Shown: positions 2,113-12,520 of the stretch, piece by piece
How the letters are laid out: every line of letters starts with the position of its first letter
How positions within the stretch are numbered: the first letter of the stretch is position 1
Assembly: GCA_035575715.1 (NCBI GenBank)
Contig: DATLXN010000011.1
Location: forward strand, 6,354-70,353
Direction of reading: 5' to 3'
DNA: 64,000 nucleotides
Source: Vicinamibacterales bacterium
GTDB taxonomy: Bacteria > Acidobacteriota > Vicinamibacteria > Vicinamibacterales > UBA2999
Notes under the pieces: generated by a model
Database searches by the model: none
What the model was told of the DNA's origin: nothing
The model's input: the letters and a program-made list of their open reading frames with translations, nothing else
Program-made: the position numbers and the translations under genes

Positions 2113-2777
2113 GCCGTGCGCCGCCGCAGGACATGATGCGACGCGAACATCGCGATGAAGGCGAGCGCCACCGACAGCATCAACAAGCCCATCGCTTCGT
2201 CGTCGCGGCCAATTTCCGTGAAGCGATAGATCGCGACCGACAGCGTTTCGGTCTGGCCGGGAATGCCGCCGGCCACCATGATCGTCGCACCAAATTCACC
2301 AAGCGCACGCGCGAACCCGAGCAGTGCGGCAGCAATCACGCTGCGTCCGGCCAATGGCAGGCTGACCGTGAAGAACACCCGCAGCGGACCCGCACCCAGC
2401 GAGCCGGCCATCTGTTCAAAGCGCGGATTCAGATGCTCGAAGCCGGCCTTTGCCGTCAGGACGATGAGCGGCAGACTCATCACCGCCATCGCAATCACCA
2501 CCGCTTTCCAGGTGAAGACGATATCGAGGCCGGCCGATTCCAGCGCGCGGCCCACCGGGCTGCGCCGGCCGAACAGCCGCAGCAGAATCAGGCCGGTCGC
2601 GACCGGGGGCATCACCAGGGGCAATGTCGCGAGCGTTTCGACCACCGAGCGGCCGGGAAATGCGCGCCGCGCCAGTAGCCAGCCCAGGGCAACACCAGGC
2701 GGCAACGCGACGACCGTCGCGAGCAGTGCCATCAGCGCACTGAAGCCGGCCAGCTCAATCGCGTTCTCGGGCATCAC
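2109..2777 (-). CDS. modB: molybdate ABC transporter permease
   Basis: 222-aa polytopic membrane protein with an EAA-type loop (EQMAGSLGAGPLRVFFTVSLPLA). It overlaps both modA and modC by 4 nt. Confidence 0.8.
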   Translation of the reverse strand: MMPENAIELAGFSALMALLATVVALPPGVALGWLLARRAFPGRSVVETLATLPLVMPPVATGLILLRLFGRRSPVGRALESAGLDIVFTWKAVVIAMAVMSLPLIVLTAKAGFEHLNPRFEQMAGSLGAGPLRVFFTVSLPLAGRSVIAAALLGFARALGEFGATIMVAGGIPGQTETLSVAIYRFTEIGRDDEAMGLLMLSVALAFIAMFASHHVLRRRTA

Positions 2778-3541
2778 CGGGGCAGGCGGAAGCCGGCGTC
2801 GAGAAATACGCGACGCGCTGCGTCAGTCGTCAGAAAGGCAATCAGCGCGCGCGCGTTCAGTTCGTCGCCACCCGCGACCACTGCCGCCGGATAGAGGATC
2901 TCGGGCGCTTCGCCATCCGGCACCGCGTGACTGACCCGCACCGCCGGTTGAGTGGCGGCGTCGGTGGCGTAGACGATGCCCGCCTGGACATGGCCTTCGC
3001 GCACGGCCGCCATCGCTGCCGGACTACTCGGCGACGGGATCACCTTCGGAGCAACCGCGCGCCACAGATCGAGGCGCTCGAGCCATTGCCGGCCATAGAC
3101 GCCAGCCGGCACGGCGCCCGGGTCGGCCATCGCAATTCGCGTCACCGCCGCAGATCCAAGGTCGCGCGGGCCAACCGCGGTCGGTGAATCCGCCGGGACG
3201 ACGATCACCAACTGATTGCTCAGGACATTCACCCGCGACCCGTCGACCAGTCGGCCGGCCCGTTCGACCAGATCCATCTGCGCCGAGTCGGCACTGAGGA
3301 AGACGTCAACCGCCAGGCCCTCTCCGATCTGCCGCGCCAGGGCATTGGACCCACCAAAGTTGAAACGAACCGGCCGACCGCCTTGCGCAGCAAACTCCGC
3401 ACCGGCACGCGGCAGGACGTTACTGAGGCTCGCCGCCGCAGCGACCATCAGCGGGCGCGAATCGACAGCCCGGTCGACGCAGCCGCATCCCAAGGACACC
3501 CCGATCGCCAGCGTCACGGCATAAATCGTCGCCAGAGGCAT
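2774..3541 (-). CDS. modA: periplasmic molybdate-binding protein
   Basis: Signal/lipoprotein-like N-terminus. ModA-like motifs FNFGGSNALARQI, VFLSAD and GIVYATDA. First gene of the modABC operon. Confidence 0.75.
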   Translation of the reverse strand: MPLATIYAVTLAIGVSLGCGCVDRAVDSRPLMVAAAASLSNVLPRAGAEFAAQGGRPVRFNFGGSNALARQIGEGLAVDVFLSADSAQMDLVERAGRLVDGSRVNVLSNQLVIVVPADSPTAVGPRDLGSAAVTRIAMADPGAVPAGVYGRQWLERLDLWRAVAPKVIPSPSSPAAMAAVREGHVQAGIVYATDAATQPAVRVSHAVPDGEAPEILYPAAVVAGGDELNARALIAFLTTDAARRVFLDAGFRLPR

Positions 3542-3597
3542 AGCAAACAGTTTAGTATCAGTTGCGTCGTTTTTGACTACGCTTTAAGTCGTTTTTT

Positions 3598-4056
3598 GTG
3601 GTCTTTACACCTATGCAACTTCTCACTGCACGCGCTGCCGCCGCCGAACTGGGCGTGACCTACTCCACCCTCAAACGCTGGATCCATCGGGGGTCGCTAC
3701 GCACCGTGCGGACCGAGGGCGGCCATCACCGCATCCCGGCGGGTGAAGTCGAACGCATGCTGGCGGCCTCAGGGACACCGCCCAAACGGCGCGCCCAGCC
3801 GGCACCCGGCGGCGTGCTCGTCGCCCTCAGCGGCCGCAATCAGATTCGTGGCGTGGTCGATGAAATCCGCACCGACGGCCTGCTCGCCCAGATCCGCCTG
3901 CGCATTGGCGATCAGACCCTGACCGCGGTCATCACCCGCGACGCCGTTCGCGAGCTCAAGCTGCGCCGCGGCGACGAGGCGGTCGCGGTGATCAAGTCCA
4001 CCGATGTGATGGTCGGCAGGAGTACAATCGCGGCCCGCAACAGGGAGGATTCATGA
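3598..4056 (+). CDS. HTH (MerR/excisionase-type) plus TOBE/Mop domain regulator, probably molybdate-responsive
   Basis: N-terminal HTH (AAAELGVTYSTLKRWIHRGSL...GGHHRI). C-terminal Mop/TOBE-like segment (SGRNQIRGVVDEIRTDGLLAQIRLRIGDQTLTAVIT...AVAVIKSTDVMV). Transcribed divergently from modA. The start could also be the ATG at 3613. Confidence 0.7.
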   Translation: MVFTPMQLLTARAAAAELGVTYSTLKRWIHRGSLRTVRTEGGHHRIPAGEVERMLAASGTPPKRRAQPAPGGVLVALSGRNQIRGVVDEIRTDGLLAQIRLRIGDQTLTAVITRDAVRELKLRRGDEAVAVIKSTDVMVGRSTIAARNREDS

Positions 4057-6086
4057 AACGCATTCTGTCGGCTCTTGCGTTGGCGTTGATGCCGACGCTC
4101 ATCGCGGCCCAGTCACCCGCCTCCGATCGCCTGACCGTCGACCTCTATCTCGAATACGAGACCGTGTCCGAGCCGCAGTTGTCACCTGACGCGTCCCAGA
4201 TCATCTATACCCGCCAGTGGGTCGACAAGCAGAACGACCGGCGCGAATCGTCGCTGTGGGTGATGAACGCCGACGGCTCGAAGAATCGCTTCCTGGTCCG
4301 CGGTAGCGGCGCCAGATGGTCGCCTACCGGCGACCGCATTGTCTACACCGCGCAGGGCGAGCCACGCGGCACGCAGATCTTCGTCCGTTATATGGACGCC
4401 GAAGGCGCCGCGTCGCAGATCACCCGCGTCGACAAAGCCCCAACGGCGTTCGCGTGGTCACCGGACGGGACCAAGATCGGCTTCGCGATGAACGTCGAGG
4501 CCAAGAACGCCTGGCCAATCAAAATGCCGCGCGCCCCCGAAGGCGCCAAGTGGGTCGAGACCCCGCGCATCGTCGAACGCCTCGACTACCGCTCTGACGG
4601 CACCGGCTACGACGATGACGCGTATCGACACATTTTTGTGGTGCCGGCCACTGGTGGCACGCCACGGCAGCTGACCGACGGCGACTGGAATCACAACGGC
4701 GTGACCTGGACGCCTGACAGCAAACAAATCCTGTTTGGCTCGATGCGCGTCGCGGACGCGGAATATCAGTGGCGCGAGTCGGATATCTACTCAGTGCAGG
4801 TCGACACCGGCGCGATCAAACAATTGACCACGCGCAAGGGCCCTGACGGTAATCCGGTAGTGTCCCCGGACGGCAAACGCGTCGCCTACACCGGCAACGA
4901 TTGGTCAAAGGACACCTGGCAGGACAGCAAGCTCTATGTGATGAATATCGATGGCACCAACCATCGCTTGATCTCAGGGACCTGGGATCGCTCGCCACAG
5001 AGCGTGATGTGGAAGCCCGACGGCAACGGCGTCTACTTCACCGCACAGGATCAGGGCTCGCAGAATCTCTACTTCCTGCCCATGGCCGGCGAACGGACCG
5101 ACGACGTGCAGTCGGTGACGCGCGGCACGCACATGCTGACCACGTCGAGTGTGGCCAGGGGCAAAGCGGTGGGGGTGTTGACCTCGCCGTCACTACCGCC
5201 CGACATCGTCGCATTCGACATTGCCGCGCCGCAGCAGATGAAGCAGTTGACCAATGTCAACGAAGACATCCTGGCCGGCAAGAAGCTCGGCGAGGTGAAG
5301 GAGATGTGGTACACCTCGGCCGACGGCCTGAAGATTCAAGGCTGGTACATCACGCCGCCGGACTTCGATGCAGCGAAGAAGTATCCGATGCAGCTGCATA
5401 TTCACGGGGGCCCGCACAGCATGTACGGCGTCGGCTTCAATTACGGCTGGCAGGAACACGCGGCCAACGGCTACGTGGTCCTTTACACCAATCCGCGTGG
5501 CAGCACCGGCTACGGCAGTTCGTTCGGCAACCAGATCATGCGTGCGTATCCGAGCAAGGATTATGACGATTTGATGGCCGGCGTCGACGAACTCCTGAAA
5601 AAGGGATTTGTCGATCCGCGCAACATGTTTGTCACCGGCTGCAGCGGCGGCGGCGTGCTGACTGCGTGGATCGTCGGAAAGACCGATCGATTTGCCGCGG
5701 CGTCGGCAAACTGCCCGGTCATCGACTGGATGAGTTTTGTCGGCACCACCGACGGCGCCAGCTGGTACTACAACTTCGAGAAGCTGCCGTGGGAGGATCC
5801 GTCGGAACATATCCGGCGATCGCCGCTGACCTACGTCGGCAACGTCAAGACGCCGACGATGCTGATGACCGGCGTGCAGGATTTGCGGACGCCAATGCCG
5901 CAGACCGAGCAGTTCTACAGCGCGTTGAAATTACGCAAGGTCCCGACGGCGATGATTCGCTTCAACGACGAGTGGCACGGCACGACGTCGAGGCCGTCAA
6001 ACTTCATGCGGACGCAGTTGTACTTGCGGCATTGGTTCGACAAGTACAAGCGGATGCCGGTGACCACGTCCACCGCACAACAATAA
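4053..6086 (+). CDS. secreted S9-family serine peptidase (beta-propeller plus prolyl-oligopeptidase-type catalytic domain)
   Basis: Signal peptide MKRILSALALALMPTLIAAQ. TolB-like propeller repeats (SPDGxxI). Nucleophile elbow GCSGGG, with downstream acidic and His candidates (DLRTP, EWHG). ATGA overlap with the upstream regulator gene. Confidence 0.8.
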   Translation: MKRILSALALALMPTLIAAQSPASDRLTVDLYLEYETVSEPQLSPDASQIIYTRQWVDKQNDRRESSLWVMNADGSKNRFLVRGSGARWSPTGDRIVYTAQGEPRGTQIFVRYMDAEGAASQITRVDKAPTAFAWSPDGTKIGFAMNVEAKNAWPIKMPRAPEGAKWVETPRIVERLDYRSDGTGYDDDAYRHIFVVPATGGTPRQLTDGDWNHNGVTWTPDSKQILFGSMRVADAEYQWRESDIYSVQVDTGAIKQLTTRKGPDGNPVVSPDGKRVAYTGNDWSKDTWQDSKLYVMNIDGTNHRLISGTWDRSPQSVMWKPDGNGVYFTAQDQGSQNLYFLPMAGERTDDVQSVTRGTHMLTTSSVARGKAVGVLTSPSLPPDIVAFDIAAPQQMKQLTNVNEDILAGKKLGEVKEMWYTSADGLKIQGWYITPPDFDAAKKYPMQLHIHGGPHSMYGVGFNYGWQEHAANGYVVLYTNPRGSTGYGSSFGNQIMRAYPSKDYDDLMAGVDELLKKGFVDPRNMFVTGCSGGGVLTAWIVGKTDRFAAASANCPVIDWMSFVGTTDGASWYYNFEKLPWEDPSEHIRRSPLTYVGNVKTPTMLMTGVQDLRTPMPQTEQFYSALKLRKVPTAMIRFNDEWHGTTSRPSNFMRTQLYLRHWFDKYKRMPVTTSTAQQ

Positions 6087-6157
6087 ACAAGCCACACCCC
6101 TTTCTGCCTAATCCCTTGCGTCCCGTAAGCGTAGTCAGATAGGCTTGAGAGCGTTCC

Positions 6158-6229
6158 ATGGCGTTTGTTCACCACCACCTCGTCCATCATCACCGTTCCC
6201 CGAACGGGTGGGCCAAGGTGCGCGTGTAA
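6158..6229 (+). promoter_or_regulatory. candidate his-operon leader peptide ORF (MAFVHHHLVHHHRSPNGWAKVRV)
   Basis: ATG 6158 to TAA 6227-6229, 23 codons. Six are His, in two runs of three (6170-6178 and 6185-6193). A purine patch GAGAG lies at 6147-6151. The ORF is followed by a terminator that abuts hisI. Confidence 0.6.
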
Positions 6230-6260
6230 CGAACCGAACACGTTTTTTAGTCACGCAACA

Positions 6261-6290
6261 GGCCCGCCCACCGGCGGGCCTTTTTTATTT
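6261..6290 (+). terminator. intrinsic terminator / attenuator hairpin 11 nt upstream of the hisI start
   Basis: GGCCCGCC (6261-6268), loop CACC, GGCGGGCC (6273-6280), then TTTTTTATTT (6281-6290). GGGTGGGCC at 6206-6214 is complementary to 6261-6269 and is a possible antiterminator. Confidence 0.75.
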
Positions 6291-6301
6291 GAGCAAGGGA
6301 C

Positions 6302-6619
6302 ATGGACTTCACAAAACTCGACGGCTTGATTCCGGCCGTGGTGCAGGACAACGACAGCGGCGAAGTGCTGATGGTCGGCTTCATGAACGACCAGGCGTGG
6401 GACCTCACCCAGCAGACCGGTTACGTGACCTTTTTCAGCCGTACGCGCAACCGGCTGTGGACCAAAGGTGAAACCTCGGGCAATCGTCTCGCCGTTAAAC
6501 AGCTGTTCATCGATTGCGATGAGGACACGGTTCTGATCAAGGCGGCGCGAGAAGGCGACGGCAATGTTTGCCATACCGGCGAACGGTCCTGTTTTTATAC
6601 CGAGGTCAAGACGCGATGA
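6302..6619 (+). CDS. hisI: phosphoribosyl-AMP cyclohydrolase (monofunctional)
   Basis: 105 aa with [26 protein letters not shown] and CHTGERSCF motifs. ATGA overlap with hisG. Confidence 0.9.
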
Positions 6620-7503
6620 AGCTGCGGTTAGGTATCCCCAAGGGTTCGCTCGAAGCATCGACGGTGCAGCTGTTCCAGCGCGCCGGCTTCAACATCCTGG
6701 TCAGCTCGCGTTCGTATTTTCCGTCGATCGATGATCCGGAAATCGAATGCATGCTGATTCGCGCGCAGGAGATGGCACGCTATGTCGCGGACGGCGTCCT
6801 CGATGCCGGCCTGACCGGCATGGACTGGATCGCCGAGCATCAACTCGGGCACCCCGAACAGTCACCGCTGGTCTCGATCGCCGATCTGATTTACGCCAAG
6901 CAGAGTTTCGGCAAGGTTCGCTGGGTATTGGCGGCCCCGGACGACTCGCCCTTTCAAACCGCCGAGGACCTCAACGGCAAGCGGATTGCGACCGAATTGG
7001 TGCGCGTCACCAAAAATTACTTTACGCAAAAGGGTCTCAACGTCGATGTCGAGTTCTCGTGGGGCGCGACCGAGGTCAAACCGCCGGTGCTCGCTGATGC
7101 CATCGTCGAAGCGACCGAAACCGGTTCGACGCTGCGCGCCAATCGGCTGCGCATTCTCGATACGGTGACCGAATCCAACACCCAGTTAATCGCCAACGAC
7201 AGCGCTCTGCGAGATGCCTGGAAGCGAACCAAGCTGGAAAACATCGCGCTGCTGCTCAAGGCGGCGATCGAGGCACAAGGCCGCGTCGGGCTGATGCTCA
7301 ACGTCAAACAAACCGATCTGCTGTCGATCCTGGCGCTGCTGCCGGCGTTGCAGCGTCCGACAATTTCGTCACTCAGCGATCCGGACTGGGTGGCGGTCAA
7401 TACGATTATCGAAGAACGCACCGTGCGCGATTTGATCCCGAAGATCAAGGCGGCCGGCGGCCAGGGCATCGTCGAATACCCACTGAATAAGATCGTGCTG
7501 TGA
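6616..7503 (+). CDS. hisG: ATP phosphoribosyltransferase, long form with C-terminal regulatory domain
   Basis: The start was moved to ATG 6616 ([13 protein letters not shown]), which overlaps the hisI stop. The track ORF begins at 6568, inside hisI. A HisG_C-like tail is present (GRVGLMLNV...[10 protein letters not shown]). Confidence 0.9.
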
Positions 7504-8744
7504 TGCTGCGCACTGTCTCGTCCTCCGATCACAAGGCGGTTGACGCGCTGCTGTCGCCGACCCGCGTGCGCGATCAGGCCATCGACCGTCGCGTGGCGAA
7601 GATCATTGAGGCGGTTCGCACGGATCCGGATCGGGCGCTGCGGCGCTACGCCACTGAACTGGACGGTCTGACCGGTCCAATCGAGATTCCGCGCGAGCAA
7701 TGGCGTGAACGCGCGAGCGGTGTCCCTCCGGCCGTCCGCGCCGCGCTGCGGCGCGCCGCGCAGAATATTCGCAAGGTCGCCCGGGCGCAGGTGCCGCGGG
7801 CGTTTCGGGCCACCGTCAGCCCGGGCGTCACCGTCGAACAGCGCGTCATTCCACTCGATCGCGTCGGCTGCTACGTCCCGGGCGGGCTCTACCCGCTGCC
7901 CTCGTCGCTGTTGATGACGGCCATTCCGGCGCGGATCGCGGGAGTAGGCGAGGTCATCGCCATTTCGCCGCGGCCGCATCCGGCGGTACTTGCGGCAGCG
8001 CTGGAGGCCGGCATCGATCGGTTTTTCCAGATTGGCGGTGCGCACGGGATCGCGGCGATGGCCTACGGCACGGGACTGGTGCCGCGGGTCGACAAGATTG
8101 TCGGTCCCGGTAATAAGTGGGTGTCGGCGGCGAAAGCGCAAGTCAGTGGCGATTGCGCGATCGACTTCTACGCCGGCCCAACCGAGATCCTGATCGTCGC
8201 CGCGAAAGGCCCGTCCGATTGGATCGCCGCCGATCTGATCGCGCAAGCGGAACACGACCCCGATGCGCGCGCGGTCCTGATCACGCCAAGCAAGCGGCTG
8301 GCGGCACAAGTGCGTCGCGATGTCGAGCGACTCGCCCCGACCGATGGCCCGGCGGTGTTGTCGCTGAAGGCACACGGCGGCATCATCGTCACTTCGTCAC
8401 TGAAAGAAGCGATGGCGTTGGCCAACACCGCGGCGCCCGAGCACCTGGTTGTCGAAAGCGAGGTTCTGGCGCGGCAGGTCCGGTGCGCGGGTGCGGTGTT
8501 CGTCGGCCGGTGGACGGCGCAGGTCGCCGGCGATTACGCCATCGGTTCGAATCACGTCTTGCCTACGGCGGGGGCCGCGCGCTTTCGCGGTGGCCTCAAC
8601 GCCGCCGACTATGTGCGTTTGGTGTCGGTGCAACGGGTGAGCAAAGCGGGACTGATGCGGATCGGGCGGACGGTGACCACCCTGGCGCGCGCTGAGGGCC
8701 TTGAAGGGCATGCACGTTCGATTGACACAAGGATGATGAAGTGA
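7500..8744 (+). CDS. hisD: histidinol dehydrogenase
   Basis: 414 aa with [16 protein letters not shown] and [13 protein letters not shown] motifs. 4-nt overlaps on both sides. Confidence 0.9.
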
Positions 8745-9823
8745 GCACACCGCGCATTCAGGGCATTCCTGATTTCGGACCAGGCCTGCGGCTGCACTTG
8801 AACGAGAACACCGGCGGCTGCTCGCCAAAAGTCGTCGAGGCGGTCCGCGCGTTCGATGCACGTGGGCTCGCAACGTATCCGGATTACCGCGCGGCGGTGA
8901 TCGAGACTGCCGCGTATCTCGGCGTCGACCCCGACTGGCTGGTGCTCACCAACGGACTGGACGAAGGTGTGCTGTTGGTGGCTCTGGGTTACCTCGGCCA
9001 GTGCACGCCGGCACCGTTGGCCGCACTCGGCGCGTTATCGACCTCGCCACCCGCGCCAGCCGAAGTCGTGATGGCGATGCCGGCATTTGAAACCTACGTC
9101 ACCACTGCCAAAGCCATGGGCGCGACCATCGTCGCCGTGGCGCCGGAACCCGCGTATGCGTTTCCGGTCGACGCGGTCCTGGCCGCCGTCAACGAGAACA
9201 CGCGGCTGGTTTACATCAACAACCCGAATAATCCGACTGGCCAGCCGGTGGCCAAGGACGACATTCACCGGATCGCACGAGAGGCGTCGCACGCATTGGT
9301 GTTCGTCGACGAGGCGTATCACGACTTCCTGGGGGAGAATTTTCTGGACCAGGCGCGGCGCTACCCGAACGTGCTGATTGGCCGGACATTTTCAAAAGCG
9401 CATGGTCTGGCCGGCATGCGCGTCGGCGTGATGATCGCGCCGCCGGCAATCCTTGAACCGATCCGCGCCGTGATGCCGCTCTTCAATCTCAATGTCGTCG
9501 CCGTCAATGCCCTGCGGGCGGCGCTCAGCGACGGTGAATTCATGCCGTGGTCGGTCGCACAGGCGACGCAGTCGAAGCAGATGCTCTATGACCTGTGCGA
9601 TCGCGTCGGCCTTCGCTACTGGAAGAGTGCGGCGAACTTTGTGTTGATCGACGGTGGCCAACGCGCGCGGGAGTTGGTCGACGGGATGATTGCGCGCGGG
9701 GTGCTGGTGCGCGATCGGACCACGGATCCCTACTGCCCCAACTGCTTTCGGGTCACCGCCGGCGTCGTCGAGTACACCGAACAAGCCGTTGCGGCGCTGG
9801 AGGCGTTGTGCGCAAAGGCATAG
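8741..9823 (+). CDS. hisC: histidinol-phosphate aminotransferase
   Basis: [24 protein letters not shown] and [15 protein letters not shown] (PLP lysine). GTGA overlap with hisD. Confidence 0.9.
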
Positions 9824-10395
9824 TCGAGCGCCACACGGCGGAAACCAGGATCCGCATCGTCATCAATTTGGACGGCAAGGGGCGATTCGAGAATCACACC
9901 GGCATTCGCTTTCTCGACCACATGCTCGATCTGGTCGCCCGACATGGCGCATTTGATCTGACCGTGCAAGCCGACGGAGATCTCGACGTCGATCAGCATC
10001 ACACCGTCGAGGACGTCGGGATCGCGCTTGGCGAAGCGGTCGGCAAGGCTCTCGGGGACCGGCGCGGGATCAATCGGGCCGGATATTTCGTGATGCCGAT
10101 GGATGAAACGCTTGCCGTCGCCGCAATCGATCTCGGCGGTCGGGCGCATACGGTGGTTGACACCAAGGTCAAGGTGCGGTTGGTTGGCGATCTCCAGACC
10201 GAGCTGCTTCACGATTTTTTTGAGGGCTTCGCGATGGGCGCGCGCGCGAACGTTCATCTCAAGGTGATTTACGGGCGGTCGAATCACCACAAGATCGAGG
10301 CGTGCTTCAAGGCGTTCGCCCGTGCGTTGCGGGTGGCATGCTCCAAGGACCGCCGGATGGCCAAGCTGCTGCCGAGCACCAAAGGGCTGATGTGA
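9808..10395 (+). CDS. hisB: imidazoleglycerol-phosphate dehydratase
   Basis: The start was moved to GTG 9808 ([17 protein letters not shown]). The track ORF from 9595 lies inside hisC. Motifs [14 protein letters not shown] and [15 protein letters not shown]. Confidence 0.85.
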
Positions 10396-10994
10396 TCGCA
10401 CTGATCGACTACGGCGCCGGCAACCTGACCTCGGTGCGCAAGGCGCTGACCCATCTCGGTGCAGAGATCGCGACGCCGCACACTCCTTACGATCTCGAGT
10501 TGGCACGGGGGATCATCGTGCCGGGCGTCGGGCACTTCGATGCGACACGGGCGATCACCGACGAGTGGCGCGCCGGCATTCGCGCCGCGGTCGCACGCGG
10601 CGCCGCGCTGTTCGGCATTTGCCTCGGGATGCAGTGGCTGTTCGATGGCAGCACCGAAGCCCCTGGGCTGCCAGGCTTGGCCGCCTTTGCCGGCCTGTGC
10701 ACCAGACTGCCCAGCGACGGCACGCTGTTGAAGATTCCACACGTAGGGTGGAATAACCTGACGCAGCCGCAACCGACGCGGTTGATGGCCGGCATTGAAC
10801 AGGATGCGCAGGTCTACTTCACGCACTCCTACGCAGCACCGCTCACCTCAGCGGCGGCGGCGACGACGACCTACGGCGCAGCGACCTTTACTTCTGCCGT
10901 CGAGCACGGCCGCATTGCCGGAGCGCAGTTCCATCCCGAGAAATCAGGCGACGTCGGCCTGCGAATTCTGAAGAACTGGCTGGACTCGCTGTGA
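10392..10994 (+). CDS. hisH: imidazole glycerol phosphate synthase, glutamine amidotransferase subunit
   Basis: The start was moved to GTG 10392 ([12 protein letters not shown]), a GTGA overlap with hisB. Motifs GICLGMQ (Cys nucleophile), HVGWN and FHPEKS. Confidence 0.9.
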
Positions 10995-11009
10995 CCGAGC
11001 GCTGGTGTT

Positions 11010-11037
11010 GGTCCCTGATCCCTGATCCCTGGTCCCT
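11010..11037. repeat. four tandem heptamers GGTCCCT GATCCCT GATCCCT GGTCCCT in the hisH-hisF spacer
   Basis: Read directly from the sequence. The four units are in one register and fill most of the 48-nt gap between the hisH stop (10994) and the hisF GTG (11043). Confidence 0.9.
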
Positions 11038-11042
11038 ACCTC

Positions 11043-11798
11043 GTGCTGTCTAAACGCATCATCGCCTGTCTCGACGTGCGCGACGGCAAGGTCGTCAAGG
11101 GCGTCAACTTCGAGGGGTTGCGCGAAGCCGGTGATCCCGGTGAACTGGCGGCGCGCTACAACCACGAGGGCATCGACGAGATCGTCATCCTCGACGTCAC
11201 CGCGACCATGGAGGCCCGACAGGCGCGGGCACAGACCATCCGCGCCGTTGCGCGCGAGATTTTTCTGCCGCTCTGCGTCGGCGGCGGCATTCGCAGCGAG
11301 GATGATGCCGCGGCGGCGATTGACGCAGGCGCCGACAAGGTCAGCCTCAATACCGCCGCACTGCGCGACCCCTCGCTGATCACCCGCCTGGCTTCACGCT
11401 ATGGCAGCCAGGCAGTGATTGTCGCGATCGACGCGAAACGGCAGAACGCGCGCTTCGAGGTCTACGCGCGAAGCGGGACCGACCTGACCGCGAAGGACGC
11501 GCTCGACTGGGCTCGAGAGGCGGCCGACTGCGGCGCGGGCGAGATCCTGCTGACCTCGATCGACCGCGACGGCACGCGCGCGGGATTCGATTGCGCACTC
11601 ACCGCGGCGGTGTCCGACGCGGTCCCGATCCCGGTGATTGCGTCTGGAGGGGCGGGCGCCTTCGAGCATTTTGCCGAGGTCTTCACCGCAGGCGCTGCCG
11701 ATGCCGCGCTGGCGGCGTCAATTTTTCATTTCAATGAGAAGAGCGTGAGCGAGCTGAAACGCTTCCTCGCGGCGAGAGCGATTCCGGTTCGACTGTGA
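11043..11798 (+). CDS. hisF: imidazole glycerol phosphate synthase, cyclase subunit
   Basis: [35 protein letters not shown] and ASGGAG motifs. Confidence 0.9.
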
Positions 11799-11821
11799 CC
11801 GACAATGCACGGAGCTGACTT

Positions 11822-12520
11822 ATGTTGATTCCCTCAATCGATCTCAAAGGCGGCAAAGTCGTTCAGCTCGTTCAAGGCGACAAACTGGCCATCGAGTCCG
11901 ACGATCTCGACGGCTGGATGGTGAAGTTCGCTCGCTTCGCGAAAGTCCAGTTGATCGACCTTGATGCCGCGATGGGCATCGGCACTAACGACCAACTGGT
12001 TCGCCGGGTCGCATCGCGTCTGCCCTGCCGCGTCGGCGGTGGCGTACGCTCGGTCGGACGGGCGCAGGAGTTGCTCGCTGCCGGCGCCGAAGCGGTGATC
12101 GTCAGCTCCGCGTTCTTTGACGCCCATCGCTCGAGCGAAGCAGCCGGCGTGATCGACTTCGATTTCGCCCGCGCGCTGGCCGACGCGATCGGCCGGGATC
12201 GCGTCATCGGCGCCGTCGACTCGAAAGCCGGCAAAGTGGTCATCCACGGCTGGAAGACGACGCTGCCGATCACGGCGGTCGAGGCGGTTAAGGCACTCGA
12301 GCCGTATTGCGGCGAGTTCCTCTACACCCATGTCGATACAGAAGGACTGATGCAAGGCACCGACCTCGCGGCGATCCGCGCCGTCGCGCAAGCGACTTCT
12401 AGTAAGCTCACCGCCGCAGGCGGAATCACCACGCGCGCGGAAATTGATGCGCTGCATGCCGAAGGAATCGATGCAGTGGTCGGCATGGCGATCTACACTG
12501 GCTCGCTGGCGCTCGATTAG
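11822..12520 (+). CDS. hisA: ProFAR isomerase (HisA family)
   Basis: IPSIDLKGGKVVQLVQG, LIDLDAA, GGGVRS and AAGGITT motifs. (beta/alpha)8 paralogue of hisF. Last gene of the operon. Confidence 0.8.
   Translation: MLIPSIDLKGGKVVQLVQGDKLAIESDDLDGWMVKFARFAKVQLIDLDAAMGIGTNDQLVRRVASRLPCRVGGGVRSVGRAQELLAAGAEAVIVSSAFFDAHRSSEAAGVIDFDFARALADAIGRDRVIGAVDSKAGKVVIHGWKTTLPITAVEAVKALEPYCGEFLYTHVDTEGLMQGTDLAAIRAVAQATSSKLTAAGGITTRAEIDALHAEGIDAVVGMAIYTGSLALD

Follow-up and report, generated by a model that had tools for sequence, protein, structure and literature searches.

A probable ribosome-mediated attenuator of the histidine operon upstream of hisI in Acidobacteriota

Introduction

What is the function of the short interval between a peptidase gene and hisI in a 64,000-nucleotide (nt) stretch of DNA from a Vicinamibacterales bacterium, and could it link the expression of the histidine operon to the supply of histidine (His)? 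The stretch (Acidobacteriota; GenBank assembly GCA_035575715.1, contig DATLXN010000011.1, positions 6,354 to 70,353 of the forward strand), referred to here at its full length as the window, carries at positions 6087-6301 a small open reading frame (ORF) rich in His codons, followed by a terminator-like hairpin. A model that had seen only the letters and a list of ORFs (the sequence-only reading) had taken this interval for a leader-peptide attenuator following the textbook his/trp logic. In this study, we find that it is very probably a ribosome-mediated transcription attenuator of the his operon, of the classical type, a conclusion that is supported by its anatomy, thermodynamics, geometry, and conservation.

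Anatomy of the hisI leader

The features on which the argument turns are as follows.

4053-6086, plus strand: S9 peptidase ORF (Pfam Peptidase_S9)
6158-6229, plus strand: leader peptide ORF (hisL-like), 23 codons and a TAA, from ATG 6158 to TAA 6227-6229, predicted product MAFVHHHLVHHHRSPNGWAKVRV
6170-6178 and 6185-6193, plus strand: putative regulatory His codons, CAC CAC CAC and CAT CAT CAC, respectively
6163-6187, plus strand: region 1, predicted 5′ strand of the anti-antiterminator, including His codons; its partner in folds without a ribosome is 6208-6234
6206-6226, plus strand: region 2, the 3′ part of the leader ORF, in which 6206-6214 and 6219-6222 make up the 5′ strand of the antiterminator in the folds
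6254-6269, plus strand: region 3, common to the antiterminator (as its 3′ strand) and the terminator (as its 5′ arm, 6260-6268)
6260-6290, plus strand: intrinsic terminator (the candidate attenuator), with a GC-rich stem of nine base pairs (bp; 6260-6268 with 6273-6281), the loop CACC, and a U-tract at 6281-6290
6302-12520, plus strand: the his operon hisIGDCBHFA, presumed target of regulation (Pfam and NCBIfam assignments)

Six of the 23 leader codons specify His, and the ORF stands ahead of a full his operon. The terminator arms, GGCCCGCC (6261-6268) and GGCGGGCC (6273-6280), form the 9-bp stem if A6260-U6281 is counted, and the U-tract TTTTTTATTT (6281-6290) is followed, 11 nt downstream, by the hisI start codon, ATG 6302. 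Within the 3′ part of the leader ORF, GGGUGGGCC (6206-6214) can pair with GGCCCGCCC (6261-6269) through eight Watson-Crick pairs and one G-U pair, and GGGUGG (6206-6211) is complementary to CCACCU (6175-6180) in the first His run. Re-reading of the sequence confirmed the positions that the sequence-only reading had given for the peptidase end, the mini-ORF, the His runs, the terminator, and the hisI start codon, along with both of the pairings that it had claimed. The interval 6087-6301 has a folding energy of -78 kcal/mol, compared with -60.3 +/- 4.0 kcal/mol for dinucleotide shuffles (z = -4.4).

Mutually exclusive folds in the window

Constrained folds of the two helices in which region 3 takes part, and of the upstream hairpin that competes for region 2, gave energies of -29.7 kcal/mol for the 1:2 helix, -30.1 kcal/mol for the 2:3 antiterminator, and -20.1 kcal/mol for the 3:4 terminator. 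The 1:2 hairpin extends over 6160-6237 and pairs the His codons with the 3′ end of the ORF. The ground state of the full leader combines 1:2 and 3:4 and reaches -51.8 kcal/mol, as against -40.0 kcal/mol when the antiterminator is forced; termination is therefore the predicted default, and the antiterminator would win only when region 1 is masked.

In these folds, the ribosome was mimicked by a blocked stretch of 28 nt (from -12 to +15 of the P-site), and for a stalled ribosome, the nascent transcript was ended just before the 3′ arm of the terminator. With the A site on any of the four His codons tested, namely the first and the last of each run, the nascent RNA forms the 9-bp helix 6206-6214:6261-6269, extended by 6219-6222:6254-6257, which agrees with the earlier proposal that a ribosome stalled on the His codons leaves 6206-6214 free. 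With the ribosome on the stop codon, 6212-6239 is covered, 6207-6211 pairs with 6175-6179, the antiterminator is lost, and the terminator forms. Without a ribosome, 6163-6187 pairs with 6208-6234, and the terminator forms as well. The structures are thus mutually exclusive, as the sequence-only reading had expected, and in the folds they switch with the position of the ribosome. Two of its details need amendment. A terminating ribosome had been thought to hide the antiterminator strand; it does so for the 3′ part of 6206-6214, whereas the remainder is sequestered by 6175-6179. Similarly, an anti-antiterminator does exist at the His run, but it is longer than had been proposed, joining 6163-6187 with 6208-6234.

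Conservation across acidobacterial loci

Relatives were collected by a hisI-protein scan with one genome per species, which gave 80 loci; removal of nine with non-acidobacterial labels and of three cut off just upstream of hisI left 68, or 69 together with the window. The layout of leader and terminator is present upstream of hisI in 67 of these 69 acidobacterial-type loci (the window and 68 other species), so the conservation in relatives that the sequence-only reading had proposed as a check is indeed found. An automatic scan detected a short ORF with a dense His cluster in 65 loci, followed in 54 by a GC hairpin and T-run recognised by the filter, and two further loci, L030 and L017, were added to the 65 by inspection. 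In L030, the leader ORF extends beyond 45 codons, for which an assembly indel is the probable cause, and in L017, the leader MTPASHLRHHHHHHHRVTGRRSCG and its terminator lie at about 2009-2146, some 0.85 kilobases (kb) upstream of hisI. Between attenuator and hisI, the latter locus, from a Vicinamibacterales metagenome-assembled genome (MAG), contains 8.7 copies of an 89-nt tandem repeat with 95% matches (2195-2976).

When a short ORF with at least four His in eight codons was sought no more than 300 nt upstream of hisI, it was found in 60 of the 69 acidobacterial loci (87%), compared with 1 of 1163 other 303-nt windows taken from these loci (0.1%) and none of the 69 reverse complements. The element is kept in Vicinamibacteria, Terriglobales, and Bryobacterales, and it is missing from all nine loci with the labels Bacteroidota, Chloroflexota, or Woesearchaeota. 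A conserved His-codon-rich leader ORF before the his operon and a terminator before its first gene, by which the class of leader-peptide attenuators is recognised, are therefore both present.

These observations bear directly on a first alternative, in which the hairpin serves only to end S9 peptidase transcripts, and the His-rich ORF arose by chance and regulates nothing. The peptidase gene is on the same strand, no other terminator-like hairpin occurs before 6260, peptidase transcripts would end at this hairpin, and the promoter motifs of the window itself are weak. However, the gene upstream of the leader is variable, an S9 peptidase being found there in only 3-4 of the 80 loci, whereas leader, terminator, and hisI stay together, with hisG, hisD, and hisC following hisI in most. 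Because the upstream gene is not conserved, the hairpin is to be assigned to the his operon rather than to the peptidase gene; peptidase transcripts of the window would incidentally be stopped by it too. The contrast between 87% of acidobacterial hisI upstream regions and 0.1% of controls, a conserved promoter between the upstream gene and the leader, and a complementarity between the 3′ end of the ORF and the terminator arm that exceeds shuffled expectation (the last two are described below) also argue against this alternative. Both the chance ORF and the peptidase terminator, the latter a possibility for which the sequence-only reading had itself allowed, were rejected on the conservation data, and we regard this explanation as scarcely credible.

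A second alternative accepts that the mini-ORF is selected but holds that its His-rich product is functional as a micropeptide, perhaps in binding metal, and is co-transcribed with the his genes or terminated ahead of them, so that the peptide rather than its translation is under selection. The length and His content of the ORF are conserved across many species, with leaders of 21-27 amino acids (10th-90th percentile), 5-8 His codons, and 9-13 codons from the His run to the stop codon; His-rich peptides can bind Ni or Zn, and a secondary role of the released peptide or of the attenuated RNA is conceivable. Nevertheless, the amino-acid sequence outside the His run is poorly conserved, the C-terminal half instead conserves nucleotide complementarity to the terminator arm, and the element invariably accompanies the his operon and has no protein family match. 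Among close relatives, the attenuator design is kept and the peptide drifts: the leader peptide differs at one residue in L082, whose hisI is 98% identical, and reads MSFSRAHHVHHHHRSTSGSAGLRV in L084 and MSAARVHHVHHHHCQTDGWVRV in L085. A micropeptide under selection for its own sake is very improbable.

Several loci depart from the usual arrangement. In L054 and L071, labelled Acidobacteriaceae and Terriglobia, no His leader lies ahead of hisI (2740-3000 in each); L054 retains a TTGACA-N17-TAGCGT promoter and a long GC hairpin without a His-rich ORF, and the pair suggests that the attenuator has been lost or replaced by another mechanism. The terminator lies 140-250 nt upstream of hisI in L005 (2804-3000), L020, L027, and L034, the usual distance being 7-100 nt, and in L005 the spacer includes another GC-rich inverted repeat, GCGCGGGCCTTGAGGCCCGCG. 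Acidobacterial-type hisI genes with His leaders also occur on contigs labelled Bifidobacteriaceae (L001) and Verrucomicrobiia (L070), which are probably mis-binned or mislabelled MAG pieces, and L032, labelled Woesearchaeota, has a bacterial-type hisI and no leader.

Tests of the antiterminator across loci

In the window, the antiterminator contributes -12.2 kcal/mol, compared with -3.7 kcal/mol for shuffled linkers (z = -4.0; none of 60 shuffles as good). Across 54 loci, the pairing of the terminator 5′ arm with upstream RNA amounts to -11.5 kcal/mol when a ribosome is stalled on the first His codon of the run, -5.5 kcal/mol when the ribosome is at the stop codon, and -5.6 kcal/mol when none is present. 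In most of these loci, the strand that pairs with the arm is located 5-25 nt ahead of the leader stop codon. When the stretch from the stalled ribosome to the terminator was dinucleotide-shuffled, the value weakened from -11.5 to -6.65 kcal/mol (Wilcoxon p = 3e-9), and 28 of the 54 loci were individually within the best 5% of their shuffles.

The MAFFT alignment of 27 Vicinamibacteria leaders (A1) recovered the terminator and a conserved CGCGCA:UGCGCG 1:2 helix; its antiterminator strands are out of register because the length of the linker varies. Covariation could not be counted there, and an alignment-free swap test and the better-aligned Terriglobia set were therefore used. In the swap test, cognate duplexes of region 2 and region 3 reached -21.0 kcal/mol, as against -18.2 kcal/mol for non-cognate ones, with none of 5000 permutations as good, and the result holds separately within Vicinamibacteria and within Terriglobia. 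In the Terriglobia alignment (A3), the antiterminator columns 69-77:126-134 are 89.7% paired, compared with 30-58% in slid controls, and their covariation score of 0.231, against 0.183 for shuffled alignments, was reached by 1 of 500 shuffles. The terminator helix of the same alignment is 96.7% paired, with five of its nine pairs changed on both sides; taken together with a small hairpin beside the His run, it is 95.1% paired, with seven pairs changed on both sides.

The geometry of the leaders is consistent with a ribosome-operated switch. Counted from the first base of the last His codon, the median distance to the start of region 2 is 15 nt, and region 2 stops a median of 1.5 nt short of the stop codon; this spacing would place it just clear of a stalled ribosome and under a terminating one. 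In ribosome-free folds, the terminator is present in 44 of the 54 loci, and the His-codon segment pairs with a median of 58% of the region 2 span. The other two hallmarks of the class, an antiterminator that cannot coexist with the terminator and an anti-antiterminator in which the His codons take part, are thus also predicted by the folds.

Predicted promoter and translation start

Alignment of the sequences upstream of the leader start codons, which the sequence-only reading had not considered, revealed a near-consensus sigma-70 promoter, TTGACN-N16-18-TANNNT. In 42 of 54 loci, its end precedes the leader start codon by 6-11 nt (mode 9-10); this motif occurs just 74 times in 932 kb (both strands of the 80 loci). 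Since the conserved promoter lies directly upstream of the mini-ORF, the terminator would be placed inside the his transcript. The corresponding features in the window are weaker, in a version that is common to the window and its closest relatives.

6116-6121, plus strand: predicted -35 box TTGCGT, 18 nt upstream of the -10 box; relatives have TTGACA at the equivalent position
6140-6145, plus strand: predicted -10 box TAGGCT, 12 nt before the ATG, assigned by position relative to the relatives

The promoter block is identical in L082, the 98% relative, and the sequence further upstream has diverged. A search of the window for strict-consensus promoters directly before start codons found none.

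A Shine-Dalgarno core (GGAG, GAGG, or AGGA) is present within the 13 nt before the start codon in none of 54 leaders, compared with 21 of 54 hisI genes, which, like the promoter, is an addition to the earlier observation. In sigma-70 promoters, there are usually six or so bases from the -10 hexamer to the transcription start. On this spacing, the 5′-untranslated region would measure 0-4 nt in the relatives and about 5-7 nt in the window, with a start near 6151-6153. A promoter that ends 6-11 nt before the start codon, combined with the lack of a Shine-Dalgarno sequence, therefore makes it probable that the leader is translated from a leaderless or nearly leaderless mRNA.

A bolder extension of this view, which we put forward tentatively and would rate slightly below an even chance, is that the attenuator is an ancient, near-universal feature of Acidobacteriota that operates without a Shine-Dalgarno sequence. 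A 70S ribosome would load on the 5′-terminal or near-terminal AUG as the RNA emerges, so that leaderless initiation, and not Shine-Dalgarno-led initiation at a paused complex, would set the first coupling of ribosome and polymerase. If this were true, the element would represent an independently evolved or very old form of attenuation, and Acidobacteriota, in which neither process has been studied, would be expected to couple transcription tightly to translation and to translate leaderless mRNAs efficiently.

Proposed mechanism

The sequence elements, exclusive pairings, geometry, and conservation described above are the observed part of an attenuator model that runs as follows. Transcription would begin at TTGCGT-N18-TAGGCT, a few nt upstream of ATG 6158, and the 23-codon leader would be translated by a ribosome while RNA polymerase moves on. 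If His-tRNA(His) is in short supply, the ribosome would stall on the His codons (6170-6193) and cover region 1, and the free region 2 (6206-6226) would pair with region 3 (6254-6269) once the latter is made; no terminator hairpin would form, and polymerase would read into hisIGDCBHFA. When His-tRNA(His) is plentiful, the ribosome would reach the stop codon (6227-6229) and cover region 2 from about 6212 to its 3′ end, the uncovered remainder would pair with 6175-6179, and region 3 would be left to pair with region 4 (6273-6281), so that transcription would end at the U-tract (6281-6290). In the absence of a ribosome, 1:2 and 3:4 would form, leading to termination as well. The transcription start, leaderless-type initiation, ribosome-polymerase coupling, and the response to His-tRNA charging are the steps of this model that we infer.

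A third alternative retains the regulation but not the sensor. Histidine might be sensed otherwise, by a leader-binding protein or tRNA (T-box-like, or HisR/TRAP-like), through Rho, or at the level of translation, the His codons being incidental or only part of the mechanism. T-boxes or the HisR repressor control his operons of other phyla (PMC9413887), an additional repressor could act at the conserved promoter, and transcription-translation coupling is so far undemonstrated in Acidobacteriota. Nevertheless, no match to the T-box covariance model or to any other Rfam family was obtained, at E <= 10 for the window interval and at E <= 1 for 10 related loci, and a strong intrinsic terminator together with footprint-compatible spacing of His codons, region 2, and stop codon is needed only by the ribosome-mediated model. 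We consider sensing by another route improbable; each of the three alternatives is, in our assessment, unlikely.

Some observations count against a ribosome-mediated attenuator in the window or limit the case for it. Its promoter boxes match the consensus poorly (three of six positions each in TTGCGT and TAGGCT), the -10 box stands 12 nt before the ATG compared with 6-11 nt elsewhere, and a generic promoter scan of the window did not report TTGCGT-N18-TAGGCT. In the folds, a ribosome at the stop codon with a 28-nt footprint covers just three of the nine nt of 6206-6214, and the block of the antiterminator then depends on the extra pairing 6175-6179:6207-6211. Furthermore, the nascent transcript of the window without a ribosome keeps the antiterminator in its minimum-energy fold, so that superattenuation would hinge on folding kinetics. 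Covariation in support of the antiterminator is modest, with just two pairs changed on both sides in A3, and is unscorable in A1, where the strands are out of register. L054 and L071, the only such loci among the 69, lack the element altogether. Finally, the transcription start, the efficiency of termination, and the response to histidine or to His-tRNA charging are properties that we infer. On balance, the folds, the conservation, the antiterminator tests, and the position of the promoter support the textbook his/trp logic that had been proposed for this leader.

The his operon and neighbouring genes

The his genes of the window form a tightly packed cluster.

6302-6619, plus strand: hisI (PRA-CH), first gene of the his operon
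6616-7503, plus strand: hisG, with an ATGA overlap with hisI
7500-8744, plus strand: hisD
8741-9823, plus strand: hisC
within 9595-10395, plus strand: hisB
within 10302-10994, plus strand: hisH
11043-11798, plus strand: hisF
11822-12520, plus strand: hisA-like gene

The hisI protein is 100% identical to the annotated hisI of a Vicinamibacterales MAG, which places the window in the acidobacterial class Vicinamibacteria; it is monofunctional at the start of the operon, and no hisE (PRA-PH) domain was seen in the his cluster. The last gene (11822-12520) is HisA-like and scores well under the NCBIfam HisA cut-off (148.6 vs 228.95 bits). The cluster is followed by ORFs for a VOC-family protein and then an amidohydrolase. 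Upstream of the peptidase gene lies a divergent pair, a ModA-like solute-binding protein (2774-3541, minus strand) and a ModE-like protein with helix-turn-helix and Mop domains (3598-4056, plus strand); this pair (2774-4056), which has no connection with the attenuator, resembles a module for molybdate uptake and regulation. A search of the 64-kb window found no further leader-peptide attenuators or His-rich mini-ORFs.

Family membership and novelty

The Rfam family RF00514 (His_leader) gave no match in window positions 5800-6700 at E <= 10, nor in 10 related loci at E <= 1; the gathering score of this family is 49 bits, and E. coli hisL, as a positive control, scored 131.6 bits. A scan with this model had been suggested by the sequence-only reading, and its negative outcome concerns membership of the enterobacterial family, not the mechanism. 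Sub-threshold Rfam matches, driven by the terminator, were obtained for Phe_leader (23.5 bits) and Trp_leader (17.8 bits). The 23-residue peptide has no family in Pfam or NCBIfam at E <= 10, and an exact look-up of this peptide and the peptides of nine relatives found none of them in a collection of 15 billion predicted proteins. The lack of an Rfam, Pfam, or NCBIfam match and the absence of the peptides from the protein collection together mean that the element is unannotated.

A covariance model built from Terriglobia leaders only (R1) matches the window at 6155-6288 over the full length of the model (38.5 bits, E about 6e-7); it also matches nearly all Vicinamibacteria loci full-length and none of the non-acidobacterial loci. 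However, R1 scores E. coli hisL at 35.4 bits, again over the full length, and its matches were therefore rejected as evidence of homology: they reflect a common layout of start codon, His run, and terminator, not ancestry. What suggests a common origin within the phylum is instead that the leaders share their promoter spacing and their length, lack a Shine-Dalgarno sequence, and have hisI as the first gene.

His leader peptides are described for gamma-proteobacteria, for some Firmicutes (PMC2965389; PMC9413887), and for Actinobacteria (cited in PMC4833913). According to PMC2965389, a survey from 2010, almost no predicted attenuator of Acidobacteria had an assigned function. Searches of the full-text literature found no description of an acidobacterial His leader, although Lopatovskaya et al. 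2010 (Mol Biol 44:128) could list candidates; the earlier remark that the device is undescribed for this lineage agrees with these searches, which cannot prove the absence of a description. The element is thus a lineage-specific, unannotated addition to a well-known regulatory class, and its probable leaderless trait has precedents in other phyla.

Acidobacteriota are among the most abundant soil phyla, and their gene regulation is almost unstudied. The proposed attenuator would be a concrete cis-regulatory device, spread across the phylum and with a mechanism that is clear and can be tested; it would add one more lineage to the independent or ancient His leader peptides and point to transcription-translation coupling and Shine-Dalgarno-independent, probably leaderless, initiation in this phylum. 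It also supplies a missing annotation, a gene for 21-27 amino acids that is unreported by gene callers and uncovered by Rfam, Pfam, and NCBIfam, and it might be used in Acidobacteriota as a native control part that responds to histidine. How attenuation itself is understood does not change.

Comparison with known systems

A close counterpart is the enterobacterial hisL leader. There, as in the window, a short His-rich ORF in the his 5′ leader precedes an intrinsic terminator, and the 5′ arm of this terminator has an alternative partner upstream; ribosome stalling on His codons, proposed here as well, is the readout. The hisL peptide of E. coli has 16 residues, of which seven are consecutive His, whereas that of the window has 23 residues with two His triplets. 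The first gene of the operon is hisG in enterobacteria and hisI here, and the window leader differs further in lacking a Shine-Dalgarno sequence and in having its start codon only a few nt from the predicted transcription start. While the enterobacterial his leader has six segments, the window has a simple four-segment arrangement (1:2, 2:3, and 3:4).

E. coli trpL follows the same 1:2 / 2:3 / 3:4 logic. In both, region 1 contains the regulatory codons and region 2 adjoins the stop codon, such that a terminating ribosome blocks, or in the window is predicted to block, the antiterminator. The two differ in that trpL senses another amino acid, bears no sequence relation to the window leader, and relies on Shine-Dalgarno-led initiation, and in that region 2 of the window lies almost wholly inside the ORF.

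Among the Firmicutes, PMC2965389 and PMC9413887 predict His leader peptides ahead of hisZ/hisS in the Bacillus cereus group, Peptostreptococcaceae, and Erysipelotrichales. Like the acidobacterial element, these are lineage-specific, come from comparative genomics, combine terminator and antiterminator hairpins, and are negative for RF00514. They belong to another phylum and precede other first genes, and they are patchy there, whereas the element is near-universal in the sampled Acidobacteriota. A leaderless arrangement is not reported for them in the accessible parts of these two papers.

Leaderless leader peptides themselves are known from other phyla: 14 have been predicted for Deinococcus deserti (PMC4007540), and mycobacteria have leaderless short ORFs with poly-Cys (bioRxiv 10.1101/834739). 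Much as is predicted for the acidobacterial leaders, the start codon in these Deinococcus and Actinobacteria leaders lies at or about 1 nt from the transcription start, and there is no Shine-Dalgarno sequence. The transcription starts of the Deinococcus and mycobacterial cases were mapped, whereas that of the window is predicted from promoter spacing alone. The Deinococcus deserti paper makes no mention of histidine (PMC4007540), and the mycobacterial ORFs sense cysteine and act on translation, with no intrinsic terminator route (bioRxiv 10.1101/834739), unlike the acidobacterial leader, which would act through an intrinsic terminator in response to His.

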